Shown here: positions 36,326 to 62,375 of the stretch, in pieces
How positions within the stretch are numbered: position 1 is the first letter of the stretch
Layout of the letters: every line of letters starts with the position of its first letter
Source: Lachnospiraceae bacterium
Lineage (GTDB): Bacteria; Bacillota; Clostridia; Lachnospirales; Lachnospiraceae
Direction of reading: 5' to 3'
DNA: 64,000 nucleotides
NCBI GenBank assembly: GCA_017517305.1
Contig: JAFWZV010000011.1
Coordinates: 38,192 to 102,191 of the forward strand
Program-made: the position numbers and the translations under genes
The notes under the pieces: generated by a model
Seen by the model: the letters and a program-made list of their open reading frames with translations, nothing else
Told to the model about the DNA's origin: nothing
Database searches by the model: none

Positions 36326-36327
36326 TA

Positions 36328-36567: not shown

Positions 36568-36582
36568 AAGTGGGGGGATTAT

Positions 36583-37272: not shown

Positions 37273-37284
37273 TTGGAGTGTAGT

Positions 37285-39098: not shown

Positions 39099-39134
39099 AC
39101 AATTTATAGGCATGTAAAGGAGTCTTAGATTATT

Positions 39135-40256: not shown

Positions 40257-40266
40257 TGAGGTTGAT

Positions 40267-45415: not shown

Positions 45416-46954
45416 ATGAAAGTCTTATCAATGTACCTACCACAATTTCATAGAGTAAAAGAAAACGACGAATGGTGGGGAGAGGGCTTTACAGATTGGG
45501 TAAGTGCAAAGAATGCAGAAGTCTTATTCGAAGGGCATTATCAGCCTCATGTACCATTAGATGGATATTACTATGATTTGATGGACAAAAAAACTATGCA
45601 ATGGCAAGCAGAGTTAATGCATAAATACGGTGTGGATGGCATGTGTATGTACCACTATTGGTTTAAGGATGGGCGTCAGATTTTAGAAAAACCTGTGGAA
45701 AAACTTCTTGAGTGGTCTGATATTAATATGCCTTTTTGTTTTTGTTGGGCTAATGAGACATGGGCAAGATCATGGAGCAATTTGGTTGCTTCGGGAGGAT
45801 TATCCATGGCAAATGTATGGTCTGATAAATTCGAGACATCAAATGCAGAAGGTAAAAATGGTATTCTGTTGGAACAGAAGTATGGAAATAGAGAGCAATG
45901 GAAGCAACATTTTGAATACTTACTACCATTTTTTAAGGATAGCAGATATATAAGAATAGATAATAAACCTTTATTTATGATATACGAAACCAGCAAGATA
46001 ACATGTTTGGGCGATATGTTAGATTATTGGAGAGAACTAGCATTAGAAAATGATTTAGATGGAATATATATTATAGGAGCAGGATGTAGCTATAGTGTGT
46101 ATAAGTACATAGATGCGGCTGTAAAATTGCAACCTAAATCTAGTATAGGAAAAATGAGGGTTATGGATAACTGGACAAAGGAGCTAGAGATGTTTTCCTA
46201 TGACTCTGCGTGGGACACTGTGCTTGCAGAAAAACCAGAGGATATAAAAACTTATTTTGGAGGGTTTGTAGGTTATGACGATACTCCACGAAGAGGGAAA
46301 AATGGATGCGTAATTAAAGGGGCAACTCCTGAAAAATTCAAACAGTATTTAAGAAAGCTTTTTGCTAAGAATATGGCATATGGAAACGATATAACATTTA
46401 TCAATGCGTGGAATGAGTGGGGAGAGGGCATGCATCTTGAACCAGATGAAGAAAATAAGTATGAATATTTGGATGCAATAAGTGAGGTCAAGAAAGAAAA
46501 AATAACAGAATTACCAGATATTGAATTATCACCAGCTATAGTTTGTGCTCAAGAGGATGAATTAAGAAAAAATCAAATTCTTCGTAAGAAGAATGAAGAT
46601 TATCTTCGCATGGCAGATTATTGGCTTTCCTTAAAGGAACAGGGAAGAAGCTTGGCTCAGGAACTAATACATAAGGGTATAAAAAGTGTTCTGATATATG
46701 GTTGTGGTATATTTTTTAAACATCTGTCGTTTGATTTGCTGGAAGGAAATATAAAAATAAAAGGAATTATTGATCAGAGGGGAGAAAAACTCAGTGCAGA
46801 GTATGAGATTTTTACACCAGACGACGTTTTCCCAGATGTGGATTTAATTATTATAGCAACGCCGTACTATTATGAAGAAATGGCAGAAGTATTAAAGGCT
46901 AAGGGATATTCTAATTATGTTTCTCTGGAAAATTTAATCATGGAAGCTTTGTAG
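45416..46954 (+). CDS. WbsX-family (GH99-like fold) protein with C-terminal Rossmann-like module
   Basis: MYLPQFHRVKENDEWWGEGFTDW, MYHYWF, FCFCWANETW, GYDDTPRRG, FINAWNEWGEGMHLEPD. Confidence 0.88.
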   Translation: MKVLSMYLPQFHRVKENDEWWGEGFTDWVSAKNAEVLFEGHYQPHVPLDGYYYDLMDKKTMQWQAELMHKYGVDGMCMYHYWFKDGRQILEKPVEKLLEWSDINMPFCFCWANETWARSWSNLVASGGLSMANVWSDKFETSNAEGKNGILLEQKYGNREQWKQHFEYLLPFFKDSRYIRIDNKPLFMIYETSKITCLGDMLDYWRELALENDLDGIYIIGAGCSYSVYKYIDAAVKLQPKSSIGKMRVMDNWTKELEMFSYDSAWDTVLAEKPEDIKTYFGGFVGYDDTPRRGKNGCVIKGATPEKFKQYLRKLFAKNMAYGNDITFINAWNEWGEGMHLEPDEENKYEYLDAISEVKKEKITELPDIELSPAIVCAQEDELRKNQILRKKNEDYLRMADYWLSLKEQGRSLAQELIHKGIKSVLIYGCGIFFKHLSFDLLEGNIKIKGIIDQRGEKLSAEYEIFTPDDVFPDVDLIIIATPYYYEEMAEVLKAKGYSNYVSLENLIMEAL

Positions 46955-47004: not shown

Positions 47005-48171
47005 ATGTCAATTAAAGTATCTGTTATAGTTACAGTTTATAACGAAGAATTGTATATTAGAGAATGTTTGGACAGCATTATGAGTCAAACATATGACAAT
47101 TGTGAAGTGATTGTTGTGGATGACGGTTCTAAAGATGGTTCAAGAGATATTTGTTTAGAGTACAAGGATAGAGATAATGTAACCCTGATATTTAAAGAAA
47201 ATGGTGGGCAAAGTTCAGCAAGAAAAAAGGGTCTTTATACATCTACAGGAGAAGCAGTTATATTTGTGGATGGCGATGACTGGCTAGAACCTGATCACAT
47301 TCAAAATTTAACAAGTAAATTTGGTGCGGATGTGGATATGGTTACATCTGGAAGTATAATGAGGGATGGTGACAAGGTAACTAATATTTTCGATGTTGTG
47401 CCTGAAGGAGAATATAATTGTGATGATATAAGGAGTAAGATACTGCCAGATTATATTTGCGACAAAGTAAGCAAAAAACAAATAATCACCCAATTTATTA
47501 CTAATAAATTATTTAGAATAGATTGTGCAAAGAAAGGTCTAGAATATGTTGATGAAAGAATTCGTTTTAATGAAGATGGATTGGCTTTGTGCAAGGTTTT
47601 GGTTGATGCTAAAAAAATTGTTGTGACACGTTATGCTGGTCATAATTATAGACAGCATGCCACTTCAATATGTCATTCTCCTAAAAAAGAATTGCTATGT
47701 GGTTTGCCATTGTTAGAAAAGGGCTACAATGAATTGCTGGGGAATATTATATCTAAAAAAGAAATCCTTGATCAGATATGTATGAATACTATGCATGTGT
47801 TTTTAGATGCTGCATTGTCTGATTATAATATTAAGATGGTGAGACGTTTTGTTACACCTTGGAAAATAATAAATGCTAATACTAAAGTAGCAATTTATGG
47901 AGCTGGACAAAAGGGTAGCTTGTATAGGGATGAAATAGAACAGGAGACAAACGTTGTTCTATGGGTTGATAAAAACTATAGTAGCATTAAAAGAAAATAT
48001 GAAGTGCAGGATCCTATGGAACTATTGAATATTCAATTTGATGTGTTACTGATAGCGATAGAGAATGAGTACATTCAAATGGATGTTCAAAGCGAATTGA
48101 TAGCCAAGGGGATAAAGTCGGATAAAATTTGGCCATTAAGAACAGAGTTGGTATGGGAAAAGACAAGATGA
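47005..48171 (+). CDS. Glycosyltransferase family 2
   Basis: VSVIVTVYNEELYIRECLDSI, VVDDGSKD, NGGQSSARKKG, FVDGDD. Confidence 0.9.
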   Translation: MSIKVSVIVTVYNEELYIRECLDSIMSQTYDNCEVIVVDDGSKDGSRDICLEYKDRDNVTLIFKENGGQSSARKKGLYTSTGEAVIFVDGDDWLEPDHIQNLTSKFGADVDMVTSGSIMRDGDKVTNIFDVVPEGEYNCDDIRSKILPDYICDKVSKKQIITQFITNKLFRIDCAKKGLEYVDERIRFNEDGLALCKVLVDAKKIVVTRYAGHNYRQHATSICHSPKKELLCGLPLLEKGYNELLGNIISKKEILDQICMNTMHVFLDAALSDYNIKMVRRFVTPWKIINANTKVAIYGAGQKGSLYRDEIEQETNVVLWVDKNYSSIKRKYEVQDPMELLNIQFDVLLIAIENEYIQMDVQSELIAKGIKSDKIWPLRTELVWEKTR

Positions 48172-48202: not shown

Positions 48203-50350
48203 ATGCAAAAAATACAGCAAGAATTTGATAAGCATTTCTCAAAATATAAAGACCATAATATTGCAATTTATGGCACGGGAAACAATGCCAAAATGCTTAT
48301 TGAAAGTGTCAAAGGTTACAAGTTTGTGAATCTTGTATCCAAAGATTTTATAGGACAAGTTGTGTATGGTAAAACAGTTATTTCTCTTGAAGAAGCTTTG
48401 AAAACCGCTGACATGATGATAATTGCCGCAACACCTTCTTCAACAGCTATAGTTTACGAACGTATAAAAGAGTTAGTGCCAGAGCATTATCCGATTTATG
48501 ATATGATGGGGAATCGATTAGAAGGGCTGGAAAGGTATAAAAACAATGCCTACTGGGATTGTAATTTAAAGCAACTTCAAAACGCTATCAAAGACCATGA
48601 TGTGATTTCTTTTGATATTTTTGATACCTTAATAACAAGAACTGCACTAGAGCTAAAAGATGTATTTGATATGGTGGAGAGGCAACTTAAAGTAGAAGGT
48701 ATTACTATTCCCTATGTAAAGTGGCGTGTTCAAGCAGAAGAAAAGTGTAATAATGAATATGAAGCACCAACGATTAATCAAATATATGAAGTTTTTAAAA
48801 CTGAAAATAAGATATCGGATAGTATTGTAAACAGAGCCCAAACTCTTGAATTTGAAACTGATTTACAATTATTAGTAAAAAGATCAGTTATGGTTGAAAC
48901 ATTGGAGTGGGCAATATCCATAGGGAAAAAGGTGTATTTTACATCTGATATGTATTATTCAAAAGATGAGATGATGAAAATTCTGTCTAATTTGGGAATA
49001 AAAACAAATGTCTCTTTACTTATATCATCTGACATAGGGAAGTCTAAAGCAAAGGGAAGCTTGTTTGAGCATATTGTAGAACAAGAAAGAAATCTCTCTA
49101 TTCTTCATATAGGTGATAATTATGAGTATGACATTATAACTGCAAGAAAATACGGAATAGATACATTCTATATAAAAAAAGGCTATGATATGTTTGCAGA
49201 ATCCTCTTGCGGTTTTTTGATTGATCAGCTTAAAACAAGGGATGATAGGCGATTACTTGGTGTGATTATAGCTGAATTATGCAATAATCCTTTGGGATTA
49301 GCTGAATCAAATGGTAAATTGTGTATAAATAGATATGAAAGCTTGGCATGTATATTGCTACCTATTACCATACTATTTATGTCGGAGATAGTAAGAGTCG
49401 CAAATAGATATGATAGACTTTTATTTGCAGCAAGAGATGGTTTTTTTCTAAATAAATTGTATTCGGCTATTAGAGATAAGCTAGGAGATATGCTACCACG
49501 TGGGGAATATTTTTATGCGTCTCGTTCTGCGATGAATAGTGCAGCAACATCTTGTGTTGAGGATATAGAGAATTACAGTCGAAAGTTATATGAAGACACC
49601 AATACAAATATTAAGGACTTTATGAAGCTTCAATTTCATATTGAGGTGAATGATGAACTGGATCTTGCAATTGATGATGGCATAAAAAAGTGGGGAGAAC
49701 GGGGATTAAAAGATAAGCTAAATAAGTATAATGAAGAAATTCTTTTGAAGTCCCAGGCTAATAAAAATGGGTACTTAAGATATATCTCTGATATGAAATT
49801 AGATGAGTATGAAAAAATGGCAATAGTTGATATTGTGACACAAGGAACCTTAGTTAGTGGATTATCAAAACTGTTAAATTATCAGATAGAGCTGATTTCT
49901 CTGGGAACTTCCTGGATTCCAAATCGATACATACCAGATGAGAAGATGGTAAACTCGGTCTATGGAAACGTATACGAGAAAAAAGATAACATAGTTTATA
50001 TTCTTTCAGATTTAGGAGAATTGCATCTATTTTTAGAAATGTTATATTCATCTACTGAAGGACAGCTTTATGAATTCGACGAAAATGGAAATCCTACATT
50101 GAAGAAAGATACTGAATATGATTACGAATTGTTGACTTGTACACAGAATTGTATTCTAAAAATGGTTGAAAGCTTAGGGTCAGATTATTACAAAATGAAT
50201 GTATCTAAAGAATTTGCACTTGCATGTATGAGGTTATTTTATCGAAAGAATTCAAAGATGTCTGAAGAATTAAAGGATAAATTCAAGTTTGATGACCCCT
50301 ACGATGTTAAATTAGAAAAATGTAATTTAATAGATGCGATGAGTGTATAA
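48203..50350 (+). CDS. Rossmann module + HAD phosphatase + PRT-like domain (candidate ribofuranosyltransferase), paralog 1
   Basis: VISFDIFDTLITR, FTSDMY, LHIGDNYEYDI; LFAARDGF, VDIVTQGT. Confidence 0.65.
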   Translation: MQKIQQEFDKHFSKYKDHNIAIYGTGNNAKMLIESVKGYKFVNLVSKDFIGQVVYGKTVISLEEALKTADMMIIAATPSSTAIVYERIKELVPEHYPIYDMMGNRLEGLERYKNNAYWDCNLKQLQNAIKDHDVISFDIFDTLITRTALELKDVFDMVERQLKVEGITIPYVKWRVQAEEKCNNEYEAPTINQIYEVFKTENKISDSIVNRAQTLEFETDLQLLVKRSVMVETLEWAISIGKKVYFTSDMYYSKDEMMKILSNLGIKTNVSLLISSDIGKSKAKGSLFEHIVEQERNLSILHIGDNYEYDIITARKYGIDTFYIKKGYDMFAESSCGFLIDQLKTRDDRRLLGVIIAELCNNPLGLAESNGKLCINRYESLACILLPITILFMSEIVRVANRYDRLLFAARDGFFLNKLYSAIRDKLGDMLPRGEYFYASRSAMNSAATSCVEDIENYSRKLYEDTNTNIKDFMKLQFHIEVNDELDLAIDDGIKKWGERGLKDKLNKYNEEILLKSQANKNGYLRYISDMKLDEYEKMAIVDIVTQGTLVSGLSKLLNYQIELISLGTSWIPNRYIPDEKMVNSVYGNVYEKKDNIVYILSDLGELHLFLEMLYSSTEGQLYEFDENGNPTLKKDTEYDYELLTCTQNCILKMVESLGSDYYKMNVSKEFALACMRLFYRKNSKMSEELKDKFKFDDPYDVKLEKCNLIDAMSV

Positions 50351-50369
50351 CAGAAAGGAGTGACACACT

Positions 50370-51710
50370 ATGCCAGCAGTATCAGTATTAATGTATGTAA
50401 GAAATGGAATGCCATATTTTGACCGAGCTATTAAAAGCGTACTTAACCAGACACTTTCGAATATAGAAATCCTGGTTATCGACGGTGGTAGTACAGATGG
50501 TACAAGGGAATTAGTTCGTGAATATGAAAGCAAAGATAAACGAGTTCGGATGCTGAGCTGCGATGTGGGTAGTGTTGGAGCTCAGTTTAACATGGGCCTT
50601 CGTGAGGCAAAGGGAGAATATATAGGTATTGTTGAGTCGGATGACTATATATTGCCTGATATGTATGAGAAGGAATATGCTTGTGCGAAAAAGGTGAATT
50701 GTGATGTGCTTAGGGCGGATAACTATATCTTTTTTGAGCTAAATGGTGAAGAGGTTACTATACGTACCTGTGTGTCACATAAAGCAGATAACTATGGAAA
50801 AATTCTTTCTTCTAAATCAGAGCCAGATAAGATTTTTATTGGTGGAAGCTATTGGACAGGCATATATAAAAGAGAGTTTCTGCTAGATAATAATATATGG
50901 GAGAATGAAACAAAGGGAGCTGCTTATCAGGATTTTGGATTCTTATTTTTGACATCAGCACTGGCACAGTCGATATATTTTATGAAGGATGCATTTTATT
51001 GTTATAGAAAGGATAATTTGTTGTCATCATGCAACTCTCCAAGAGGAGTAGAGCTTGTTGAGACAGAGTTTAAATATATCAAGGATAATTTGAAGCAAAG
51101 AGGCTTGTGGGACAACTATAAGTCATATTACTACCTTTGGAAGATTAGAAATGAAAGATGGTTTTACAAGAATCTACAAGAAAGCGATAAGCAAAAATTT
51201 TTGGAATATGCATATGACAGTATATATGCTGATATGCAGGAATGTGATATCCCTGATGAACAGTGGAATAAAAAGGAACTTGATTTTATTAAAGCTATTA
51301 GAAAATCAGCTGATCATGTTGGCGAATACCTTAAGCAGGATGATATTCGCTGGAGCAAGTCCTGTGAGATGTTAAAGGGATTAAGCGATGATGAGCAACT
51401 TTACATATTTGGAGCAGGTAATTTAGGTGAGATAATCTATAAATACTTGGTAGGTCGGGGCTTAAGTCCAAAGGCTTATGTGGATAATAATACAGGTTTG
51501 TGGGGAACTAAAAAAGGCGGTGTGAAAATCATTTCACCTGCTGAGCTCATAGCTACCAAGGATGCGACTGTAGTGGTTTGCAGTGAGAACTATGCAGAAG
51601 AGATAGCAAATCAGCTACAAAATGAAAATGTAGAACCAGACAGGATAATACTCTGTAATGATATGGATTCCTGTGTTAGATTTTTTATGAAGATGAAAAA
51701 TGAAAAGTAG
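50370..51710 (+). CDS. Glycosyltransferase family 2
   Basis: VSVLMYVRNG, VIDGGSTDGT, GEYIGIVESDDY, WTGIYKREFL, YCYRKDN. Confidence 0.9.
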   Translation: MPAVSVLMYVRNGMPYFDRAIKSVLNQTLSNIEILVIDGGSTDGTRELVREYESKDKRVRMLSCDVGSVGAQFNMGLREAKGEYIGIVESDDYILPDMYEKEYACAKKVNCDVLRADNYIFFELNGEEVTIRTCVSHKADNYGKILSSKSEPDKIFIGGSYWTGIYKREFLLDNNIWENETKGAAYQDFGFLFLTSALAQSIYFMKDAFYCYRKDNLLSSCNSPRGVELVETEFKYIKDNLKQRGLWDNYKSYYYLWKIRNERWFYKNLQESDKQKFLEYAYDSIYADMQECDIPDEQWNKKELDFIKAIRKSADHVGEYLKQDDIRWSKSCEMLKGLSDDEQLYIFGAGNLGEIIYKYLVGRGLSPKAYVDNNTGLWGTKKGGVKIISPAELIATKDATVVVCSENYAEEIANQLQNENVEPDRIILCNDMDSCVRFFMKMKNEK

Positions 51711-51752
51711 AATAAGCTACAAGCAGTTTGATGGTTACGAGAGGTACGGCAT

Positions 51753-53112
51753 ATGAAATACTTACTATTTGGAACAGGGGATTATTATGAAAGATATAAA
51801 AAGTGGTTTCCTAAGGAGGATGTTTTAGCCCTTATGGATAATTCTCCTATGAAGGTGGGAACACAGATAGATGGTGTTAATGTGATGACCCCTCAGGATG
51901 CTGTTAAACTACCTTATGATACGATTGTTATATTAAGTTTTTATTTTGTAGAGATGAAAAATCAGTTGCTGGAGTTAGGAGTAGATGAAACTAAGATATT
52001 TCATTTTTACGACCTTCCCAAGGTTTTGCCAGCTTCTACGCCTAGGAGAGAGATTAAATATTGGGGTGTGAATTCAACTAATGATGAGAAGAAGAGGGTG
52101 CTACTTTTATCCCATGATTTAACCCTTGGTGGTCCCTCGCTAGCATTGCTACACGGGGCGAAGGTACTTCATAAAGGTGGATACCAGGTTGTCTTTGCAT
52201 CTATGTTGGATGGCCCTTTACGAGAGGATGTGTTAATGCAAGGTATATCTGTTATTGTTGACGAAAATTTACAAAGGGATACTATGGAGGAGGTGGAGTG
52301 GATAAAGGACTTTGATCTGGTTATCTGCAATACCATAAATTACCATGTATTTTTAAGTCGTAGAAAAAAAGATATACCTGTTATTTGGTGGTTGCATGAT
52401 TCTCCATTTTTTTATGGTGGAATTGATAAAGAGTTATTAAAATCTATTGATACAAGTAATATGAAGGTTGTTTCTGTGGGCCCTGTTCCAAGGGCAGCTA
52501 TGCAGGAATATAGACCGAGCTTAGAGATAGGGGATTTGTTATATGGGGTTTCGTTCAAAGGATAAGATACATTTCGTGACAATAGGTTATATAGAGTGGA
52601 GAAAAGGGCAGGATTTATTAATCGATGCTATCAGAATGCTTCCAGCTGAATTGCGAGAAAAATGTGAATTCTTGTTAGTTGGACAGGATTCATCTGTTAT
52701 GGCCAATGAAATTCGAGAAACTATTAAGGATATACCTCAGGTTAATATGTGTGGAAAAGTGGACAGAGAGAAGCTTAAGGAGATTCTTAATGATGTAGAT
52801 GTTATGATTTGTCCTTCAAGGGAGGACCCTATGCCTACCGTTGCGGCTGAGGCTATGGCCTTTGGTGTTCCTTGTATTTTGTCAGATGCAACTGGCACAG
52901 CTGGTTACGTTACAGATGGTTTAGATGGTTTGGTTTTTGCCAGTGAGAATAAGACCCAGCTAAGTAAAAAGATAGTATGGTGTGTAGAGCATATAGAGGA
53001 TATAAAGCAAATGGGTAAAGCGACAGAAACTGTGTTCAATAACCATTTTTCTGTAAATGTTTTTGAAGAAAATATACTAACCCTTGTAAAAGATATGATA
53101 GGTGATGCATAA
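51753..53112 (+). pseudogene. GT4-type glycosyltransferase split by a frameshift (51753-52565 and 52543-53112)
   Basis: ORF1 has the GT4 N-domain (LLLSHDLTLGGPSLAL, WWLHDS); ORF2 in the +1 frame has the C-domain (FVTIGYIEWRKGQDLLI, PSREDPMPTVAAEAM); frames overlap at tatggggtttcg. Confidence 0.75.
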
Positions 53113-53113
53113 G

Positions 53114-55156
53114 ATGAAAAACATTGATGATATTTTGAAATGTTATAAGGCTTCTAAAGTCGCTGTATATGGCCTTGGCACAGAAACAGAAAGGTTTCTT
53201 TCCCAGCAGGGTGACAAGGTTAATATTGTTGGTCTGTTGGATGGCTTCTGTGAAGAAGGCGAAATGTATGGTTATCCCATTATTTCTATGCAGGAAGCAG
53301 AGCTTAGGGGTGTGAAGCTAATTGTGGTGGTTGCGCGCCCTGGTTCATGCAAGGCTATCGCTAAGAGGATAGGCGATTTTTGCAAGGAGAATGAGATTGC
53401 TTTATTTGATGTAAGAGGGAAAAATCTGCTTGAAAACAGCAGGGTAACCTTTAATTTTTCACATATAGAGGGCGAATCTAAGGAGGCTTTGTGGGAAAAG
53501 GTAAAGAAGGCTGATACGGTGAGCTTTGATTTGTTTGACACTTTAGTTATGAGAAAGGTTTTGTCATATACAGATGTTTTTTCTCTTTTGGAAAGAAGCT
53601 TGGAGGATGAAGGGATTCGCATACCAGAATTTGCCAAACTTCGTCTTGGAGTAGAGAAAAATATATCAAAAAATGGTGCACCAACCCTTGAAAAAATCTA
53701 TTTGGAGGTGCTTAGGCAGGCTGGCATGGATTTAAAACTTGCAGAAAAGCTAGCCTTACTAGAATGGAAGTTGGATTATTCTCTGTTAACTGCTAGACCA
53801 GATGTATGTGAAGTATTTCGTCATATAGTAGGTAGTGGGAAAAGAGTATATATTACTTCAGACACATATTACAGAAGATGGCAGATTGAGAAAATACTTT
53901 CTAAATTTGAGGTAACAGGTGCCTATGAGCTTTTATTATCCTGTGAGGAAGGCACATCTAAAACTAATAATTTGTACGATCATTTACTTGCTAAGACAGG
54001 TAATGTTAAGGTGCTACATATCGGAGATGATGAGACTGCGGATATTGAAATGGCAGCGTCGAGAGGTATAGATACATTTCGTTTATATAATGGTGCAACA
54101 CTTTTTGACGCGTTAGGAGAGCTAGGTGTGACGCCGTATGTGTTAAGTTTGTCAGATAGAATAAGGGTTGGGCTTTTTATTGCTAGAATGTTTGGTAATG
54201 CCTTTTGGTTTGATGAAGAACAACGTAAGCTGTGTGTTTCTGATGCCTATGATATCGGGTATTTGTTCTGTGCGCCTATGATTTCTGATTTCGTTTTCTG
54301 GTTGAAAAATAGAGTTAATGAAGAAGGATTAAATCAAATTTTATTCTGTGCCAGAGATGGTTATCTGGTGGAAAAACTATACAAAAATATAGATAAAACA
54401 ACAAATTCTGTATATTTTCTTACATCAAGAACAGCAGCTATCCGGGCAGGGATGGAACAAAATGAGGATATTGACTATGTAAATAGTATGAAATATTTTG
54501 GCTCTGTGGAAGAGAATATGAGGGTGCGTTTTGGCATTGATGCGTCTGATATTAAGATGGAAGAATATAATAATAAAATATTTGAAAAGGCAATATTACA
54601 GCGTGAGAATTATAATAGGTATATAAATGGCTTGGGTCTAGAAGATGGAGAACTTGCTATATTTGACTTTGTGGCGAAGGGAACTACCCAACTTTATCTT
54701 CAGCGTTTGTTTAGTCAACATATGAAGGGTTTTTATTTTTTGCAGCTAGAACCTGAGTTTATGAAACATAAAGGGTTGGATATTTCACCGTTTTATTCAG
54801 AAGAGGAAAAGGACAATAGTGTAATATTTGATAGCTATTATATCCTAGAGACTCTACTTACATCCCTCCAACCATCCGTGTCGGAATTTGATGAAAATGG
54901 TAATGCTATATATGCGGCTGAAACTCGAACACAGCAGGATTTGAAATGTGTTGAGAGAATGCAGAAGGGTGTATTGGACTATTTTGATGATTATATAGGA
55001 CTGATTTCAGAGGATATGAGGGAATGCAATAAAAAGCTGGATGAAACATTTTTTGCATTAATTAACAAGGTTTTCATAACTGATAAAGACTTTTTATCGC
55101 TTGTTGTAGAGGATCCTTTCTTCGGAAGGATGACAGATATAAAAACTATGATATAA
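53114..55156 (+). CDS. Rossmann module + HAD phosphatase + PRT-like domain, paralog 2
   Basis: VSFDLFDTLVMR, ITSDTY, LHIGDDETADI; ILFCARDGY, FDFVAKGTTQ. Confidence 0.65.
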   Translation: MKNIDDILKCYKASKVAVYGLGTETERFLSQQGDKVNIVGLLDGFCEEGEMYGYPIISMQEAELRGVKLIVVVARPGSCKAIAKRIGDFCKENEIALFDVRGKNLLENSRVTFNFSHIEGESKEALWEKVKKADTVSFDLFDTLVMRKVLSYTDVFSLLERSLEDEGIRIPEFAKLRLGVEKNISKNGAPTLEKIYLEVLRQAGMDLKLAEKLALLEWKLDYSLLTARPDVCEVFRHIVGSGKRVYITSDTYYRRWQIEKILSKFEVTGAYELLLSCEEGTSKTNNLYDHLLAKTGNVKVLHIGDDETADIEMAASRGIDTFRLYNGATLFDALGELGVTPYVLSLSDRIRVGLFIARMFGNAFWFDEEQRKLCVSDAYDIGYLFCAPMISDFVFWLKNRVNEEGLNQILFCARDGYLVEKLYKNIDKTTNSVYFLTSRTAAIRAGMEQNEDIDYVNSMKYFGSVEENMRVRFGIDASDIKMEEYNNKIFEKAILQRENYNRYINGLGLEDGELAIFDFVAKGTTQLYLQRLFSQHMKGFYFLQLEPEFMKHKGLDISPFYSEEEKDNSVIFDSYYILETLLTSLQPSVSEFDENGNAIYAAETRTQQDLKCVERMQKGVLDYFDDYIGLISEDMRECNKKLDETFFALINKVFITDKDFLSLVVEDPFFGRMTDIKTMI

Positions 55157-55197
55157 TATTGCATAGAGAAGATTTGTAGTTACGAGGGGGTATACAT

Positions 55198-55860
55198 ATG
55201 AACTTTGAACTTAACGCATCTATGATGTGCGCAAATTTTGGTAACTTAGAAAAAGAAGTAAAGCTTTTAGACGAGGCAGGTATCGATTCATTTCATATAG
55301 ACATTATGGATGGTCGTTATGTGCCTAATTTTGCTATGTCCTTAAATGACATGAGATACATCGCAGGTGCAACTAAAACACCTCTTGATGTGCATCTTAT
55401 GATTGAGCACCCGAATAATCGTATAGGATTGTTTCTTAACAACTTAAGACCTGGTGATACCGTGTACATTCATCCGGAAGCGGAGTATCATCCATCTACA
55501 ACACTTCAGGCTATTATAGATGCTGGAATGATTCCTGGTATAGCTATTAATCCAGGAACTAGTGTTGAGACAGTTATGGAGATGCTTCGTATCGTTAAGA
55601 AGGTTCTGCTTATGTCTGTAAATCCTGGTAATGCGGGACAGATGTATCTCCCATATGTAGGCGAGAAGATTAATAAGCTTATTTCTCTCAAGGACGATAT
55701 GGATTTTGAGATTTACTGGGATGGAGCTTGTGGTATGGATAAGATTAAGGAGTTTGCCCCTAAGGGTATCAAGGGCTTTGTTCTTGGTACAACTGTGCTG
55801 TTTGGCAAGGACAGAGAGTATGGAGAGATTATTAAAGATATTAGAAATATTGAGTTTTAG
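55198..55860 (+). CDS. Ribulose-phosphate 3-epimerase family (Rpe/AlsE-like)
   Basis: ASMMCANFGNL, FHIDIMDGRYVPN, PLDVHLMI, GIAINPGT, LLMSVNPG, WDGA. Confidence 0.88.
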   Translation: MNFELNASMMCANFGNLEKEVKLLDEAGIDSFHIDIMDGRYVPNFAMSLNDMRYIAGATKTPLDVHLMIEHPNNRIGLFLNNLRPGDTVYIHPEAEYHPSTTLQAIIDAGMIPGIAINPGTSVETVMEMLRIVKKVLLMSVNPGNAGQMYLPYVGEKINKLISLKDDMDFEIYWDGACGMDKIKEFAPKGIKGFVLGTTVLFGKDREYGEIIKDIRNIEF

Positions 55861-55869
55861 GAGAACTAT

Positions 55870-56568
55870 ATGAATATAGCTCTGGTTTTAGCTGGAGGTA
55901 CAGGGACTAGACTTGGTGCTGATATGCCTAAGCAGTACCTTGTGGCTAAGGATAGGATGATAATTACATATTGCTTGGACACATTTTTTGCTTCTCCTAA
56001 CATAGATATGGTTTGGATAGTTGCTGAAAATAGTTGGCAGTCAGAGATTGTTAACGAATTAGATAAGCAGGGTATAAATCAAGGAAAGCTAAAAGGCTTT
56101 TCTCTGCCTGGTGCTAATCGTCAGTTATCCATATATAATGGTTTGTCTGACATTGTAAAATGTGCCCCAGAGGGCTCTTGCGTAATGGTTCACGATGCGG
56201 CTAGACCATTGCTTACCGAAGAGCTTATCAGCAGGTGCTTTGATGGACTTAAAGGCCATGATGGGGTTATGCCTGTTCTTCCCATGAAGGATACGGTGTA
56301 TATGAGTCAGGATGGAAATACAGTTTCAAAGCTTTTGGATAGAAGCACCCTGTTTGCAGGACAGGCTCCAGAGGTGTTTGATTTGTATAAATATTATCAG
56401 GCATGTCAGGCTTTATTGCCAGATAAAATTTTAGCTATCAATGGTTCCACTGAGCCGGCCATAATGGCAGGGTTGGATATTGCTATGGTGCCAGGTGATG
56501 AGGGTAATTTTAAAATTACAACCAAAGCAGATATGGATAGATTTATTGAACTTGTAGATAAATTATAA
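55870..56568 (+). CDS. IspD/TarI-family alditol-phosphate cytidylyltransferase
   Basis: VLAGGTGTRLGADMPKQYL, GANRQLSIYNGL, VMVHDAARP, AGQAPEVF, NFKITT. Confidence 0.9.
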   Translation: MNIALVLAGGTGTRLGADMPKQYLVAKDRMIITYCLDTFFASPNIDMVWIVAENSWQSEIVNELDKQGINQGKLKGFSLPGANRQLSIYNGLSDIVKCAPEGSCVMVHDAARPLLTEELISRCFDGLKGHDGVMPVLPMKDTVYMSQDGNTVSKLLDRSTLFAGQAPEVFDLYKYYQACQALLPDKILAINGSTEPAIMAGLDIAMVPGDEGNFKITTKADMDRFIELVDKL

Positions 56569-56596
56569 AATGGATTTACAGAGAGGGTGTGTTGAG

Positions 56597-57673
56597 ATGA
56601 AAGCATGGGTATTGCACAGCATAAATGATTTCAAGTTTGAGGAGCATGATAATCCAATACCTCAGCCAGGAGAGGTGTTAATTAAGGTTAAGGCAGCAGG
56701 TATATGTGGCTCTGATATTCCTCGTGCATATGAGACAGGTGCTCATGTTCATCCTCTTGTTACAGGACATGAATTTTCTGGTCAGGTAGTTCAGGTGGCA
56801 GATGAGGAGCATGCGAATTGGATAGGTAAGAGAGTGGGTATATTTCCTCTTATACCTTGCAGAGAGTGTGGTCCATGTAAGAATGAACAGTATGAAATGT
56901 GTAGGAATTACAGCTATCTGGGTTCTAGAAGAGACGGGGGATTTGCAGAATATGTATCTGCACCAGTGTCTAATCTTATAGAATTACCGGATAATGTAAC
57001 CTTTGAACAGGCAGCTATGCTGGAGCCTATGGCAGTGGCAGTTCATGCCATGAGACGTGGGTTTTCCCTTATGGGCTCAGTGGCTGAAGAGACTTTGAAT
57101 AATAGTACAGTGGCTGTATGGGGACTTGGAACCATAGGACTTTTGTTGGTTATGTTCCTAAAACAGGCAGGGGTTAGAAATATATATGCCATTGGCAACA
57201 AGGAATTTCAGAAAAAGCAGTTGGTTGAGCTGGGGATTCCTCAGGAGAATTACTGTGATAGCAAATCAGATGATGCCCATAAGTGGCTTATGAATAAAAC
57301 TGAGGGCTACGGAGTGGATTTGTTCTTTGAATGCGTAGGTAAAAATCAGGTGGTGGCTGAAGCAGTTGAAGCTACAAAGCCTGCAGGTGGAATAGTTTAT
57401 GTAGGTAATCCTTATTCAGATATGCAATTTGATAAGCCTACTTATTGGAAGATACTTAGAAATCAATTAAAAATTACCGGATCCTGGAATTCCTCCTTTA
57501 CCGGTGATGATAATGATGACTGGAATTATGTGGTACAGTGTTTAGCCAAGAGTTGTATTGCGCCAGAGAAGCTTATCTCTCACAGATATCCTATGGAGGA
57601 GCTTGAAAAGGGATTTCACATTATGAGAGACAAGACAGAGGATTATGTAAAAATAATGGGAATTGGGGAGTAG
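56597..57673 (+). CDS. Zn-dependent alditol-phosphate dehydrogenase (MDR family)
   Basis: GICGSD, TGHEFSG, CRECGPC...C, GGFAEY, EPMAVAVHA, GLGTIG. Confidence 0.9.
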   Translation: MKAWVLHSINDFKFEEHDNPIPQPGEVLIKVKAAGICGSDIPRAYETGAHVHPLVTGHEFSGQVVQVADEEHANWIGKRVGIFPLIPCRECGPCKNEQYEMCRNYSYLGSRRDGGFAEYVSAPVSNLIELPDNVTFEQAAMLEPMAVAVHAMRRGFSLMGSVAEETLNNSTVAVWGLGTIGLLLVMFLKQAGVRNIYAIGNKEFQKKQLVELGIPQENYCDSKSDDAHKWLMNKTEGYGVDLFFECVGKNQVVAEAVEATKPAGGIVYVGNPYSDMQFDKPTYWKILRNQLKITGSWNSSFTGDDNDDWNYVVQCLAKSCIAPEKLISHRYPMEELEKGFHIMRDKTEDYVKIMGIGE

Positions 57674-57682
57674 GAAAAGGAT

Positions 57683-59227
57683 ATGTTTGAATTAGTTGAA
57701 GGAATGATATTTCATTTATATGCGGAAACTGAGCAGGATGCGGTGGCTCAGGCCAAGGAGTTTTATGGTCAGGGAGGTCATGATAACGATGTTGTGGCTG
57801 TAAATGGTCTCTTAGACGAACCTATTTATTTGAGTAAAAGTACAGCAATGTTAGGTTATTTGAGACAGGATGGATTTGTATATTTTACTCGTAGAATGTT
57901 TAAGGATGCCAGGCTTAATTCTCATCTAGCTATGGGAGGAATTATACCTGCTTTAAATGAATTAGGAGAACCGGTTTGTCTGATTAGAAAAAAGGGACTT
58001 TCTGGTTATGTGCATGACTACACAGCGGTAAATGATGTTATTGATATAAGACCTTTTGAACTTTATGATAATGTTGTGTTAAATGAGATTACTGAGCATG
58101 CATTTATCTTGCTTAAAGATGCCCTTAGTGGATATAGTGGAAAGATTGTCTTAGCAGGAGAGGGCTGGCAGGATTTTAAGAAACTTTTTCCTGAGCGTGA
58201 TGAAATTATATATGTTGACAGCATAGACCAGTTGCCTCCTGATGTAGTTCAGGGTAAAACTATGTATCTTATGGAGTTTATGTCCAACATGGCTGGCTGG
58301 GATCAGCGTGTAAAGGAGGGCTTTTTCTCCTATGATGAGGTTATGAGTGTAGTTTATTGCTTTGCCAAGAGAAAGAGCTATGGTGACAAGCATCCTGATA
58401 AAAAGTTCTTCCTTGTGAACCCGGGCATGACTATGGAGGGATTGATGTCTGTATGTGATAAGGTGCAGACACCATATGCCTATGCAAAGGCAAATGGATT
58501 CATACCGGTTATAAGATTAACTCAGTCAGACAGAAATATATATTCAGATAAGCCAAGAGATGATATTTGGAGTAAGTTTTTTGTTCAGCCTTATGGTGAG
58601 GAGGCAAGTGAGTGGTCAGAGGCTTGTAATGTGTGGGAGTTTCCGTACAGTACCATTACATTTTCAGCTAGATGGCTTATGACTCAGATTGTAAAATGTG
58701 AGCCTGTTAGCTTTATGAATACAAATTTCATTAATGAGAGAGTAAGGGTAGAAATTGACAAGGTTAGGGAGGGTGTACTTCTTGAGCCAGAGAAAACTAT
58801 AGGCGTTTTGATTAGAGGAACAGACTATACAACCAGCGCAGTGCCTGGACATTCTGTTATGGCTACTCCTGAGCAGGTTATGGAGAAAATCCTTGAGCTT
58901 GAAGCTAGTGGTGAATACGGCAACATTTTCTTATCCACAGAGGATGAGGATATATTAGAGAAAATGAAGCAGTTATGCGGAGATAAACTTACATACATTG
59001 ACCAAAAGCGCTTTAAGATTAAAGCTGGAGAGCTACTTGCAGATCAGGCAAAGGAACGAGAAAATGAGGGCTGGCTTAAGGGTAAGGAGTATCTTACAAC
59101 CTTAAAGCTGTTGTCAGAGTGTAAGGCATTTATTGCCTCAGGTGGCTGTTGCGGGACTACCTGTGCACTAAACTCAGGCAAGGATAATTTTAAGGAAAGC
59201 TTCGTGTTTGACTTGGGCAGAAATTAA
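57683..59227 (+). CDS. Unknown N-domain + NodZ/O-fucosyltransferase-like GT-B domain
   Basis: C-terminal IGVLIRGTDY and IFLSTED motifs; LKLLSECKAFIAS. Confidence 0.6.
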   Translation: MFELVEGMIFHLYAETEQDAVAQAKEFYGQGGHDNDVVAVNGLLDEPIYLSKSTAMLGYLRQDGFVYFTRRMFKDARLNSHLAMGGIIPALNELGEPVCLIRKKGLSGYVHDYTAVNDVIDIRPFELYDNVVLNEITEHAFILLKDALSGYSGKIVLAGEGWQDFKKLFPERDEIIYVDSIDQLPPDVVQGKTMYLMEFMSNMAGWDQRVKEGFFSYDEVMSVVYCFAKRKSYGDKHPDKKFFLVNPGMTMEGLMSVCDKVQTPYAYAKANGFIPVIRLTQSDRNIYSDKPRDDIWSKFFVQPYGEEASEWSEACNVWEFPYSTITFSARWLMTQIVKCEPVSFMNTNFINERVRVEIDKVREGVLLEPEKTIGVLIRGTDYTTSAVPGHSVMATPEQVMEKILELEASGEYGNIFLSTEDEDILEKMKQLCGDKLTYIDQKRFKIKAGELLADQAKERENEGWLKGKEYLTTLKLLSECKAFIASGGCCGTTCALNSGKDNFKESFVFDLGRN

Positions 59228-59274
59228 AGGATGAAATAATGGAACCAAGCGCTATGCTATGATGAGGTTTTACT

Positions 59275-61572
59275 ATGGATATAACAACAGAATTCTTGAG
59301 AGATGAGGTGCGAAGTGGCTTTTACATCCCAACTGCTATCAAACAGGCTTGGGCGGTACAGCTTCATATTCTTTCGGAAATAGACAGAATTTGTAGAAAA
59401 TATAATATTACATATTTTGCAGATTGGGGTACTCTCCTTGGCACCATAAGACATGGTGGATATGTGCCTTGGGATGATGATTTGGATATTTGTATGAAAC
59501 GAGAGGATTATAATCGTTTTAGGCAGGTGGCAGACAGAGAGCTTCCCAAAGAGTTTGCAATTCATGATTATGAGCGCAAGGACGGCCATTGGTTGTTCCT
59601 TGCGCGAGTTATTAATAGAAATCAGATTTGCTTTGATAAGGAGCATCTTGATAAGTATTACAATTTTCCCTATATAGCAACTGTAGATATCTTTGTGCTT
59701 GATTACTTGTATAAGGATGAGGAGCAGGAACAAAAAAGGTGTGAAGAGGTAAAATACTTATTGGCATTGGCAGACCTAATTGTTCAGGGAAATAAGACAT
59801 TTTCTGATATGAGCTTAGAGCTTGGCAAGGTGGAGTCAATGTATCACACAACTATAAATCCTACCTTAAGTTCTCGTGATATAGGAATAAGATTATATCA
59901 GATAGCTGAACAACAGATGGCTCGTGTTCCTAAGGAGGAAGCTGATACTATAGGACAGATATTTCCTTGGGTATTAAAGGGAGGGAGGGGACTGCCTAAG
60001 AAATATTATGAGAAAACAGTTCGCCTACCCTTTGAAATGACCACTATGCCGGTACCTGCCTACTATCATCTTGTATTGCAGAATAGATATGGAGATTATT
60101 TTAAGGTGCATAAGGTGTGGGATGGACACGATTATCCATACTTTGAAGGGCAGAGAAGGAATCTTCAGAAGGAGGCAGATTTTGAACTGCCGGAATTTAA
60201 GTTTAATAAGAGTATGTTGCGTCAAAGAGATGCAGAGTCAGATAAATCAGGCTCCCTAAAAATCATATCCGAGGAGTGTGTGGCAGAGCTTGATATGATG
60301 CTTACATCAGTAGAAGGTGGAGTAGAAGGCAAGTTATATGATGAAGTGTTAGCTATTCTACCAGAGTGTCAGCAGCTGGCCATTGACCTAGGAACACTGA
60401 TAGAGAGCGTTAAGGGGGAGAATAACCTTTGTTCTGCTATAGTGGTTTCTTCTTTGGAACAATTTTGTGAGGCACTGTTTGGCGTATATGAAATATTGAC
60501 AGCGGAGGCTGATATAAAAGGTGATTTGCTATCAAAACAGCTTGTGAATCTAAGAGAGACATTTTCTGTAGTTGTACAAGAAGTATCAAGTCAGATAATT
60601 GAGAAAAAAGAAATTCTTTTTGTCACTACAGGTCATAAGCAATGGAGAGGATTTGAGTCCTTGTATGCGGCTGCATCAGCAGAAGCAGAAAATGATATTT
60701 ATGTTGTACCTGTACCGTTACTATGGAAAAATGGATATGGACAGGTTACCATGACGGATGATGAGATTATAGCTGCTGTGAAGAGTGAAGCATATCCTGA
60801 ATATGTAAAGCTGACAGCTTGGAGCTCTTATTCTCTTGAGTTACATCATCCTGACATTATATTTATTCAGGATCCATATGATGGAGAAAATGGTTGCCTT
60901 ACTATTCCCTCTCAATTTTATGCTAAGAATCTTCAGAAATATACTGAAAAGCTGATATATGTGCCTCCATATGTAGTTGAGGAATTTGGGCAAAGGGATA
61001 CCACGGCTTTGTACAATATGAAGCATTATGTGACAGCGCCAGGTGTTGTGTGTGCGGATAATGTTATAGTTCAGTCGGAACATATGAGAAAGCTTTATGT
61101 TGATAAGCTTACAGAATTTGCAGGTGGTGATACAAAAGCTATATGGGAGGAAAAGCTTCTAGCTCTTGGATTGCCTGTGATGGATGTAGAGTATGCAGAT
61201 AAGAAGGATAGTCAGGATAAAAGAATTCTCTTTTGTCTGGGTTGTAATGATTTATCAGAAAGTGAAGTGGATTTTGTATCAAAGCTACAGGATAAGCTAG
61301 CTGTGTTTAAGGCTAATCATGATAAGCTACAGGTTGGAATTTGCATGTATCCGGCAGATATAGAACAATGGAATATGGTTGATGAAGAAAATGTGGTAAG
61401 TAGGGTTGTAGAAGCAATTAAGGAATTATCCATTGAACCATGGTGCTTTATTGTGGACGTAAGCCAGATGGATATGATAGATATTGCAAGGGATTTTGAT
61501 GCCTACTATGGATGCTCATCACCATTGGTGCATATGTTTAATTGTGAACAAAAACCTGTAATGCTATGGTAA
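59275..61572 (+). CDS. LicD-family phosphotransferase fusion (paralog 2)
   Basis: YFADWGTLLGTIRHGGYVPWDDDLDICMKR, VDIFVLD; same C-terminal HPDIIFIQDPYD...FDAYYG domain as 26396-28729. Confidence 0.85.
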   Translation: MDITTEFLRDEVRSGFYIPTAIKQAWAVQLHILSEIDRICRKYNITYFADWGTLLGTIRHGGYVPWDDDLDICMKREDYNRFRQVADRELPKEFAIHDYERKDGHWLFLARVINRNQICFDKEHLDKYYNFPYIATVDIFVLDYLYKDEEQEQKRCEEVKYLLALADLIVQGNKTFSDMSLELGKVESMYHTTINPTLSSRDIGIRLYQIAEQQMARVPKEEADTIGQIFPWVLKGGRGLPKKYYEKTVRLPFEMTTMPVPAYYHLVLQNRYGDYFKVHKVWDGHDYPYFEGQRRNLQKEADFELPEFKFNKSMLRQRDAESDKSGSLKIISEECVAELDMMLTSVEGGVEGKLYDEVLAILPECQQLAIDLGTLIESVKGENNLCSAIVVSSLEQFCEALFGVYEILTAEADIKGDLLSKQLVNLRETFSVVVQEVSSQIIEKKEILFVTTGHKQWRGFESLYAAASAEAENDIYVVPVPLLWKNGYGQVTMTDDEIIAAVKSEAYPEYVKLTAWSSYSLELHHPDIIFIQDPYDGENGCLTIPSQFYAKNLQKYTEKLIYVPPYVVEEFGQRDTTALYNMKHYVTAPGVVCADNVIVQSEHMRKLYVDKLTEFAGGDTKAIWEEKLLALGLPVMDVEYADKKDSQDKRILFCLGCNDLSESEVDFVSKLQDKLAVFKANHDKLQVGICMYPADIEQWNMVDEENVVSRVVEAIKELSIEPWCFIVDVSQMDMIDIARDFDAYYGCSSPLVHMFNCEQKPVMLW

Positions 61573-61946: not shown

Positions 61947-62375
61947 ATGATAGCTTTAGGCTGTGATCACGGTGGTTATGAATTAATGCAGGAGGTTAAG
62001 GCTCATCTTGAGAAGAGAGGCTTTGAATATAAGGATTTTGGATGCTACAGCAATGATTCTGTAGACTATCCAGAGTACGGAAAAAAGGTTGCTCATGCAG
62101 TTGCAGATGGTGAGTGCGAGCTTGGAATTCTTATCTGTGGAACAGGAATCGGAATATCAATTGCTGCAAATAAGGTGAAGGGAATCAGAGCTGCTCTTTG
62201 CGCAGATTGTTTTTCGGCAGCGGCTACAAAGGAGCATAACAATGCAAATATTCTTGCTATGGGCGCTAGAACTACAGGTCCTGGACTTGCACTTAAAATT
62301 GTTGATACATTCCTTGATACACCATTTTCTAATGATGAGAGACATATTAGAAGAATTAATATGATAGAAGAATAA
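61947..62375 (+). CDS. rpiB: Ribose-5-phosphate isomerase B
   Basis: ALGCDHGG, SVDYP, LICGTGIGISIAANKVKGIRAA, HNNANILAMGAR, RHIRRI. Confidence 0.96.
   Translation: MIALGCDHGGYELMQEVKAHLEKRGFEYKDFGCYSNDSVDYPEYGKKVAHAVADGECELGILICGTGIGISIAANKVKGIRAALCADCFSAAATKEHNNANILAMGARTTGPGLALKIVDTFLDTPFSNDERHIRRINMIEE

Follow-up and report, generated by a model that had tools for sequence, protein, structure and literature searches.

We analysed a gene cluster at 48.2–61.6 kb of a 64,000-nt window (the whole stretch of DNA under study) from a Lachnospiraceae bacterium, which encodes two ribofuranosyltransferase-type proteins, an enzyme cassette for a CDP-activated alditol and a protein of the LicD family. 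The best explanation of the combined comparative evidence, to which we give a probability of about 0.58, is that the cluster forms the distal third of an island of ~35 kb (26.4–61.6 kb) devoted to flagellar glycosylation, whose soluble enzymes would modify flagellin in the cytoplasm with ribofuranose (Ribf) and alditol phosphate. Genes and proteins are designated below by the window position at which the gene starts.

Proteins 48203 and 53114 were found to be full-length paralogs (29% identity, E = 1e-62 over 654 residues), as an earlier sequence-only reading of this stretch had stated, and both carry the motifs that it had listed, in the forms FD(I/L)FDTL, (A)RDG and D-x4-GT. The start of the second protein at 53114 is the one chosen by gene callers. 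In 48203, residues 1–125 form a Rossmann-like domain similar to PF22674, residues ~130–330 a HAD phosphoribosyl-phosphatase domain (CrpP/PRP-like) and residues ~375–715 a phosphoribosyl pyrophosphate (PRPP)-dependent transferase domain (gPRT/CriT-like), and the same three-domain architecture was found in 53114. The HAD domain with the family nucleophile motif FDIFDT is present in both paralogs and was matched by Pfam and NCBIfam HAD models. When searched alone against the PDB, 48203 matched Bcs3, the capsule polymerase of Haemophilus influenzae type b (Hib), with an E-value of 4e-11 (query residues 130–447 on Bcs3 residues 383–717). The second protein, searched from its alternative start at 53102 as a single sequence, had no PDB match, and its assignment follows from its paralogy to 48203 and from the family profile. 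This profile was built from an alignment of 64 members including the 53114 paralog, and it matched Bcs3 with an E-value of 1.9e-47 (extending to Bcs3 residue 838) and the Thermobacillus composti ribofuranosyltransferase 7SHG with an E-value of 6e-33, the latter match spanning a HAD part (33–255) and a transferase part (298–606). The AlphaFold2 model of 48203 had a mean predicted local distance difference test score (pLDDT) of 93, and its comparison with the PDB by Foldseek retrieved Bcs3 (E ~2e-22) and 7SHG (E ~2e-17) as the only matches ahead of generic HAD hydrolases. The fold comparison with Bcs3 that the sequence-only reading had proposed was thus run, and the model contained a gPRT/CriT-type transferase fold rather than lacking a PRT fold.

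Bcs3 is divided into the domains CroT (residues 1–373), CrpP (374–591) and CriT (592–1036), and its residues D386, D680 and E818 were shown by mutagenesis to be required (PMC10299916); the numbering of the deposited chain is offset by +3 from that of the paper. In 48203 numbering, D138 of the FDIFDT motif aligns with D386 of CrpP, D412 of R411-D412-G413 aligns with D680 of CriT (in S-R-D680-G), and D543 of the D-x4-G-T motif aligns with E818, at which position 7SHG also has an aspartate. The equivalents of these three residues are conserved in the 53114 paralog as well. Across the 64 family members, D138, D141, R411, G548 and E612 are invariant, while D412, G413 and D543 are each kept in 90% or more. 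Sequence, profile and modelled fold place 48203 and 53114 among the gPRT-PRP enzymes, a family of glycan ribofuranosyltransferases that depend on PRPP. In the pathway that we propose, each would move ribofuranose-5-phosphate from PRPP to a glycan hydroxyl by its CriT/gPRT domain, the two acting at distinct positions, and the HAD domain would then remove the 5-phosphate to leave beta-Ribf, activities that we predict from the homology.

The two proteins resemble Bcs3 (CroT-CrpP-CriT-SH3b; PDB 8A0C/8A0M; PMC10299916) in having a HAD phosphatase followed by a PRPP-dependent ribose-5-phosphate transferase with the D386, D680 and E818 equivalents, and a CDP-alditol supply is encoded alongside in both cases. 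They differ in being two diverged copies with an unrelated ~125-aa Rossmann-like N-terminal domain and no fused CroT or SH3b, in being accompanied by alditol-phosphate transferase candidates of the LicD rather than the TagF family, and in lying beside flagellin, without ABC/Kps genes, in a Gram-positive bacterium. No SH3 or Glyphos_transf match was found by Pfam in either protein, and the Bcs3 match starts at CrpP; since the TagF-like CroT domain and the SH3b domain are both absent, 48203 and 53114 are not Bcs3-like polymerases, and the position of CroT is taken by the PF22674-related domain. The order of HAD and gPRT domains and the motifs FDIFDT, RDG/REG and D-x4-GT are shared with the dual-domain gPRT-PRP enzymes of O-antigens and capsules (Kelly et al. 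2022; 7SHG; K. pneumoniae O4/O7 ORF5/ORF7, PMC11231755), but the known enzymes of this type serve lipid-linked polysaccharides exported by ABC transporters, whereas the window proteins represent a three-domain subfamily found in exporter-poor loci.

Directly behind the second ribofuranosyltransferase-type gene, the predicted trio of epimerase, IspD-like protein and zinc-dependent dehydrogenase was recovered by Pfam and NCBIfam (55198, 55870 and 56570). The epimerase scored 168 bits against TIGR01163, under the equivalog cut-off of 212.6, and was also matched by allulose-6-phosphate 3-epimerase. The cytidylyltransferase 55870 matched the ribitol-5-phosphate cytidylyltransferase model NF001183 with an E-value of 7e-36 and 123.7 bits, under the cut-off of 166, and its closest PDB structures were 2vsh (which we take to be pneumococcal TarI), 3f1c and 4jis (named ribitol-5-phosphate cytidylyltransferase), ahead of bona fide IspDs. 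The product of the adjoining gene 56570 is a putative polyol-phosphate dehydrogenase by its MDR zinc-dependent alcohol dehydrogenase domains, and its nearest solved structure is galactitol-1-phosphate 5-dehydrogenase (E = 9e-48). The arrangement of an MDR zinc-dependent reductase next to an IspD-like cytidylyltransferase is that of TarJ and TarI in wall teichoic acid synthesis, but the window lacks the TarK/TarL polymerase, TagO/TagA/TagB priming and the TagGH exporter and has a dedicated Rpe-family epimerase. The three enzymes would together supply a CDP-alditol, most likely CDP-ribitol, as suggested by their families.

A minority possibility that we take seriously is that the activated alcohol is arabinitol, xylitol, a hexitol or another polyol phosphate instead of ribitol, in which case the glycan would contain alditol phosphate without being similar to the Hib capsule polymer polyribosylribitol phosphate (Hib PRP). 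The sub-cut-off scores of the epimerase and the cytidylyltransferase, the match of the former to allulose-6-phosphate 3-epimerase, the proximity of the dehydrogenase to galactitol-1-phosphate 5-dehydrogenase and the presence of quite different CDP-alcohol cassettes in related flagellin-LicD loci such as L100 all point in this direction, and a route to CDP-arabinitol from xylulose-5-phosphate exists in Streptococcus pneumoniae 17F. The ranking of 2vsh, 3f1c and 4jis over true IspDs and the TarJ-TarI arrangement argue for ribitol, and the Rpe-family enzyme and the RpiB encoded at the flank would each feed ribulose-5-phosphate.

The alditol phosphate would be transferred by LicD proteins. The sequence-only reading had placed two of these in the 48203–61572 segment; the paralogous pair exists, but only 59275 lies within this segment, and the other is encoded at 26396–28729, starting 73 bp after the flagellin stop codon. 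The two proteins are 33% identical over their full length and scored 114 and 131 bits against the Pfam LicD model, for which the cut-off is 22.6. In the AlphaFold2 model of 59275 (pLDDT 86.8), a LicD domain (residues ~1–300) is followed by a four-helix bundle (328–442) and an alpha/beta GT-B-like domain (445–765). The motif W66-D67-D68-D69-x-D71 (WDDDxD) is invariant among 45 family sequences, and the N-terminal domain showed a weak but specific match to FKRP by both Foldseek and profile search. The C-terminal domain had been described as TagF-like, an assignment that our searches did not support beyond a generic GT-B fold. UDP-GlcNAc 2-epimerases and LpxB came first in the Foldseek search with this domain while TagF ranked 28th (E = 2.8e-3), PF04464 (Glyphos_transf) matched none of the 45 long-LicD family members even at E ≤ 1, and residues 445–765 contain no histidine that is invariant across those members. 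On the combined results of Foldseek, a PDB profile search, Pfam on the 45 members and residue conservation, we reject assignment to the TagF family; one Paenibacillus homolog of the C-terminal domain reached 21.3 bits against PF04464, below the threshold of 22.1.

We propose that the LicD domains of 26396 and 59275 would transfer alditol phosphate to the glycan to form phosphodiester links, a role suggested by gene linkage and by analogy with FKRP and fukutin. The mammalian ISPD (CRPPA)/fukutin/FKRP system acting on alpha-dystroglycan likewise combines IspD-homologous CDP-ribitol synthesis with two paralogous LicD-fold enzymes and an O-glycan on a protein, and it is FKRP that the LicD domain of 59275 matches. 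The mammalian proteins, however, are Golgi enzymes of eukaryotes, their catalytic domain alone shows homology, which is remote, the two acceptor glycans are not related, and the window proteins carry an additional helical bundle and a GT-B domain.

No wzx, wzy, ABC transporter or initiating phosphoglycosyltransferase gene was found in the 26.4–61.6 kb island, which confirms for this window what had been noticed before. No coding-strand open reading frame (ORF) in 26396–61572 encodes a product with more than two transmembrane (TM) segments predicted by hydropathy over 19-mers, and none of the ~38 island ORFs had an ABC, Wzx/Wzy or Bac_transf/WecA-type match in Pfam; in a six-frame scan of the whole window, the sole ORF with five TM segments was located at 269–1102. 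The island places glycan genes contiguously with flagellin and filament genes, without those for lipid-carrier initiation and export, and this synteny is kept in other loci. Modified flagellin would exit through the flagellar type III export apparatus, a route that would require neither a flippase or ABC transporter nor an enzyme for initiation on a lipid carrier.

The proposed acceptor is supported by the genomic neighbourhood of LicD relatives. We collected 80 metagenome loci and compared those with usable flanks that encode close relatives (LicD domain scoring 150 bits or more with the window proteins; n = 28) with those that encode distant ones (n = 39). Flagellin was found within 3 kb in 9 and within 10 kb in 13 of the 28 loci with a close LicD, against 0 of the 39 with a distant LicD, and the gap between flagellin and LicD was usually ~70–240 bp. 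Four loci (L090, L092, L096 and L100) repeat the window order FlgL-FliW-FlaG-FliD-FliS-FlgN-FliC-LicD, and a fifth (L111) does so from FliW on. In L092 and L093, the orthologs of 26396 are 53% identical and the 73-bp gap after flagellin is kept; in L092, FliC is followed by a 781-aa LicD protein and then directly by Rpe and an IspD-like gene. By tblastn, L093 was also found to contain matches to Rpe and IspD, and L113 and L117 matches to IspD; all three loci carry LicD and flagellin. In L082/L083 an 846-aa LicD protein adjoins flagellin, and a long LicD gene stands beside flagellin in an NCBI Lachnospiraceae metagenome-assembled genome (MAG). This flagellin-LicD synteny is a more general trait of gut Lachnospiraceae that has apparently not been described before.

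Relatives of the ribofuranosyltransferase-type proteins (HAD-CriT) were also found in flagellar loci, both on Lachnospiraceae-like contigs and in Paenibacillus, Cohnella and Aminipila. In L100 (9021–20658), and also in L111, flagellin and a 309-aa LicD protein are followed, in this order, by a cytidylyltransferase-oxidoreductase (GFO/IDH/MocA) fusion, a pair of TIM barrels similar to xylose isomerase, a fusion of GFO with GDPD, another LicD, a radical SAM protein and lastly a 733-aa HAD-CriT protein; the activated alcohol of this cassette may be a cyclitol or another polyol. In Paenibacillus sacheonensis (L005, 3401–12109), flaG-fliD-fliS are followed by genes for a GT2-TPR protein, an SDR protein, an 877-aa protein that shares 36% identity with the LicD C-terminal domain in its first 440 aa, IspD, HAD-CriT and RgpF. 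Matches by tblastn indicated the same gene order in Cohnella endophytica (L007), and these two flagellar loci thus carry the module in the form that it takes in Bacilli. In an Aminipila MAG, a HAD-CriT gene is located ~4 kb from flagellin, FliW and FlgL.

We then weighed whether the 45–61.6 kb genes instead make a lipid-carrier-based glycopolymer of the cell envelope, a teichoic-acid-like or capsule-like Ribf/alditol-phosphate polymer whose initiation and export genes lie elsewhere in the genome and whose flagellar neighbourhood is incidental. The gPRT-PRP enzymes characterised to date all work on polysaccharides that are lipid-linked and exported through ABC transporters (PMC11231755, PMC10299916), and they, Bcs3 and TarI/TarJ all serve polysaccharides or teichoic acids. 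In line with this, when genome loci represented by 18 kb or more were surveyed for an exporter-like ORF no farther than 10 kb away (an ABC ATPase, or a product with at least 6 TM segments), one was found in 18/19 cases for two-domain relatives. For three-domain relatives, the type encoded by the window, the count was 9/35 (Fisher p = 1.4e-6), and polytopic ORFs accounted for 1.7% of the ORFs around them against 11.3% around two-domain relatives. The GC content of the distal segment, which differs from that of the pseudaminic-acid-type (Pse) block, and the presence of the same distal block in L084, where the contig ends and no flagellin link is visible, also fit an envelope polymer. On the other side stand the 35 kb of contiguous same-strand genes without a polytopic membrane protein, the full-length paralog of the distal LicD 73 bp after flagellin, the Rpe and IspD genes directly behind flagellin-LicD in L092, the HAD-CriT genes inside the flagellar loci of L100/L111, L005/L007 and L058, and the scarcity of exporters near three-domain relatives. 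With this evidence, we consider an envelope polymer unlikely.

Several further observations weigh against the flagellin-directed pathway. A strong terminator-like hairpin is located 3' of flagellin, and the composition of the island is mosaic (GC 0.29–0.35 at 32–52 kb against 0.37–0.41 at 52–62 kb), both of which weaken the case for co-regulation of flagellin with the island. Flagellar genes were found within 10 kb of HAD-CriT relatives in only 3 of 79 genome loci (L005, L007 and L058), a weak test as the distance in the window itself is 22 kb. L084 is the locus most closely related to the distal block, and its contig stops short of the point where a flagellin gene could be seen. The scores of 55198 and 55870 under the NCBI equivalog cut-offs mean that the alditol could differ from ribitol. 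In addition, no recognisable flagellin-directed initiating transferase, either Maf (PF01973) or TPR-GT2 such as FgtA/GmaR, was detected in any island ORF, including the unannotated ones, while GT2-TPR genes are present in the relatives L005 and L084. This last point, together with the nearby genes for FliD and a FlgL-like protein, would be compatible with FliD, FlgL or an unrelated cytoplasmic, secreted or surface protein as the acceptor. As the LicD partner conserved across loci is flagellin, usually at a gap of ~70–240 bp, we regard such an acceptor as very improbable.

For the flagellin-directed pathway, the sequence-only reading had foreseen Hib-PRP-like chains built in the cytoplasm directly on flagellar proteins and released through the type III system. 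The cytoplasmic and flagellar part of this proposal is supported by synteny and by the depletion of exporters, but the Hib-PRP-like chains are unsupported. A true repeating (Ribf-ribitol-phosphate)n chain on flagellin would draw on all three Bcs3 activities, which are represented here (gPRT, phosphatase and a CDP-alditol phosphotransferase candidate), and iteration is compatible with the sequence. However, Bcs3 needs a single copy of each module, together with its TagF-like CroT fusion and an SH3b domain that binds the polymer (PMC10299916), while the activities here are duplicated and diverged (29% and 33% identity), the gPRT proteins have no CroT or SH3b, and at least six other transferases are encoded. 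Flagellin is also exported in unfolded form, through a narrow channel, and the flagellar glycans known to us are short, with ~11 sugars at most. We consider the repeating chain distinctly improbable. Because the island encodes ~11 distinct transferase domains and both duplicated activities (gPRT and LicD) have diverged, the product is more likely a defined oligosaccharide, branched or linear, with about two Ribf and one to a few alditol phosphates than a PRP-like polymer. It would be O-linked to flagellin, and its remaining residues would be added by the GT2, split GT4, WbsX and GT23-like transferases and by the nonulosonate (Pse-type) pathway.

Table. Features of the flagellar locus and the predicted glycosylation island in the 64,000-nt window.
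Feature	Coordinates	Strand	Size, evidence and remarks
Flagellin (proposed acceptor)	25511..26323	+	270 aa, D0/D1 only; Pfam Flagellin_N E=2.4e-44, Flagellin_C E=8e-26
Terminator-like hairpin	26346..26369	+	Between flagellin and the 26396 LicD gene; 10-bp perfect stem, 7 GC pairs, T-rich tail; consensus scan only
Long LicD protein no. 1	26396..28729	+	777 aa; LicD domain, helical bundle, GT-B-like domain; Pfam LicD E=6.5e-38
Nonulosonate (pseudaminic-acid-type) pathway and acyl-modification genes	29550..41301	+	Pfam
WbsX-family glycosyltransferase	45416..46954	+	Pfam E=5.6e-118; syntenic in L084
GT2 with small C-terminal Rossmann-like domain	47005..48171	+	Pfam GT2 E=3e-35; weak PglD_N match; L084 ortholog with weak PF22674 match
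Predicted ribofuranosyltransferase no. 1	48203..50350	+	715 aa; Bcs3/7SHG homology by sequence, profile and fold
GT2 with C-terminal PF22674-like domain (aa 341–418)	50370..51710	+	Pfam; hidden Markov model of the 48203-family N-terminal domain E=4e-5 at aa 341–418; precomputed PF22674
GT4, N-terminal half	51753..52565	+	270 aa; Pfam Glyco_trans_4_5 E=1.9e-14, C2185-like_N (PF22674-like)
GT4, C-terminal half	52543..53112	+	189 aa; Pfam Glycos_transf_1 E=3e-29
Predicted ribofuranosyltransferase no. 2	53114..55156	+	680 aa from ATG 53114, or 684 aa from GTG 53102; Pfam HAD E=1.2e-6
Ribulose-phosphate 3-epimerase (Rpe) family	55198..55860	+	Pfam E=1e-46
IspD/TarI-like alditol-phosphate cytidylyltransferase	55870..56568	+	Pfam IspD E=2.8e-33
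Zinc-dependent MDR polyol-phosphate dehydrogenase/reductase, TarJ-like role	56570..57673	+	Pfam ADH_N, ADH_zinc_N
GT23-like (NodZ/FUT8-type) glycosyltransferase, C-terminal ~290 aa	57683..59227	+	514 aa; family profile
Long LicD protein no. 2	59275..61572	+	765 aa; Pfam LicD E=1.3e-32; last gene of the island
RpiB	61947..62375	+	NCBIfam above cut-off; housekeeping flank at the distal end of the island

Among the other transferases, the GT4 between the two ribofuranosyltransferase paralogs is encoded by two ORFs in different frames with a 23-nt overlap. The split sequence is identical in three independent gut metagenomes from three studies, and the junction is also free of indels in L084, a relative in which the flanking ribofuranosyltransferase has 64% identity. 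This sequence identity and the ungapped junction ruled out a sequencing or assembly error, and by sequence the GT4 is either a genuine split GT-B enzyme or subject to a programmed frameshift.

Protein 57683, which the sequence-only reading had left undescribed, had no Pfam, NCBIfam or single-sequence PDB match. Its family profile matched NodZ (E = 1.5e-6) and FUT8 (E = 2e-5), with the motif R378-G-T-D381 (RGTD) conserved, and its C-terminal domain is shared with many proteins of ~320 aa, a large family with 1421 representatives at E ≤ 1e-3. Its assignment as a second LicD or a TagF-like protein was rejected, as it shows no LicD similarity and the profile points to GT23. A homolog is encoded directly after Rpe-IspD-ADH in L084, a locus with only one HAD-CriT gene, where a DUF4422 glycosyltransferase replaces the second and a GT2-TPR gene replaces the distal LicD.

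The Rossmann-like domain PF22674 (C2185-like_N) occurs on at least five proteins of the distal part of the island. Sites similar to it were located at 48203–48580, 53114–53500, 51390–51625 (GT2 50370), 51753–52050 (GT4 N-terminal half) and 45050–45250 (residues 62–128 of the 161-aa protein 44868). This module might serve as a common docking or oligomerisation module.

Almost all genes of the window lie on the plus strand, and its GC content is low. From 19 kb on, genes for a FlgL-like protein, FliW, FlaG, FliD, FliS and a FlgN-like protein precede flagellin on the same strand, and an array of ~38 same-strand ORFs runs unbroken from flagellin to 61572, followed by housekeeping genes. On the 579-kb metagenome contig of the window, RpiB is followed by Sua5 and then by the ATP synthase operon, and this flank was also found in L084. 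The hairpin at 26346–26369 is a likely flagellin terminator or attenuator, so that expression of the island may hinge on read-through or on a promoter inside it. The stretch that separates the first LicD gene from the PseB-like gene holds a 136-aa ORF (28813–29223), matched weakly by PqqD at its C-terminus, and behind it another terminator-like hairpin (29386–29423). The nonulosonate genes at 29550–41301 encode PseB-like, CMP-synthetase, NeuB, acetyltransferase, DegT and PseG-like proteins, and the acyl-modification genes among them encode MaoC, an AMP-ligase, an acyl carrier protein (ACP, 36328–36567), an HMG-lyase-like protein (HMGL), a methyltransferase and a cyclase. The GC content at 32000–52000 is 0.29–0.35 against 0.37–0.41 to both sides, and this composition suggests that the central island block was acquired separately from the distal block at 52–62 kb. 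The host is a flagellated, Lachnospiraceae-like gut bacterium, and the named homologs of the key proteins are mostly from Lachnospiraceae. Three gut metagenome runs contained 100% of the sampled words of the locus. One faecal RNA run contained short contigs, mostly 90–95% identical and probably from a related strain, over portions of the Rpe gene, of the junction between the TarI-like and ADH genes and of gene 57683, which were uninformative about co-transcription.

A phosphodiester-linked flagellar glycan, which the sequence-only reading had called unusual, has a precedent. In C. difficile Type A, the cytoplasmic enzyme FtaD uses a CDP donor to attach a phospho-substituent to GlcNAc-FliC, so that a phosphodiester flagellar glycan made from a CDP donor is established for this system, and it is inferred for Pseudomonas aeruginosa b-type (bioRxiv 10.64898/2026.02.12.704994). 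The window resembles the C. difficile FgtA/FtaABCD and P. aeruginosa b-type systems in its flagellin-linked genes, predicted CDP-activated alcohol, candidate soluble phosphotransferases, predicted phosphodiester and lack of an exporter. The C. difficile donor is CDP-N-methylthreonine and FtaD is TagF-like, whereas the window would use a CDP-alditol and LicD-fold candidates, with the addition of PRPP-derived ribofuranose (predicted) and many more glycosyltransferases. Our searches of the literature available to us on ribitol, ribofuranose, ribitol phosphate or LicD together with flagellin returned no report beyond the work on C. difficile FtaD.

The observations also allow a broader reading in four parts. 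The long LicD proteins may be an unrecognised class of flagellin-modifying enzymes across Lachnospiraceae, encoded by the first gene after flagellin. They may install phospho-substituents derived from CDP-alcohols (here ribitol phosphate) on flagellin glycans or possibly directly on Ser/Thr, and would thereby take the role of Maf or FgtA-type enzymes elsewhere. The three-domain gPRT-PRP subfamily may be a branch specific to protein glycans in which the PF22674-like module docks transferases into a soluble assembly line, and the flagella of abundant gut commensals may carry teichoic-acid-like Ribf/ribitol-phosphate epitopes. Taken as one joint claim, these four parts are speculative and unlikely to hold together in full.

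PRPP-dependent ribofuranosyltransferases and CDP-ribitol chemistry have so far been found in capsules, O-antigens, teichoic acids and mammalian dystroglycan, and the proposed flagellin-directed pathway, if true, would extend them to bacterial protein glycosylation and yield a flagellar glycan with ribose and sugar-alcohol phosphate of a kind not yet described. LicD would then be a second enzyme family for phosphodiester modification of flagellin, beside the TagF-like FtaD. Lachnospiraceae flagellins are dominant gut antigens and ligands of Toll-like receptor 5 (TLR5), and an anionic teichoic-acid-like glycan on them could, if present, affect immune recognition, phage adsorption and motility. 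The recurrent combination of flagellin, LicD and a variable CDP-alcohol cassette provides a testable handle on the diversity of flagellar glycans in uncultured gut bacteria.

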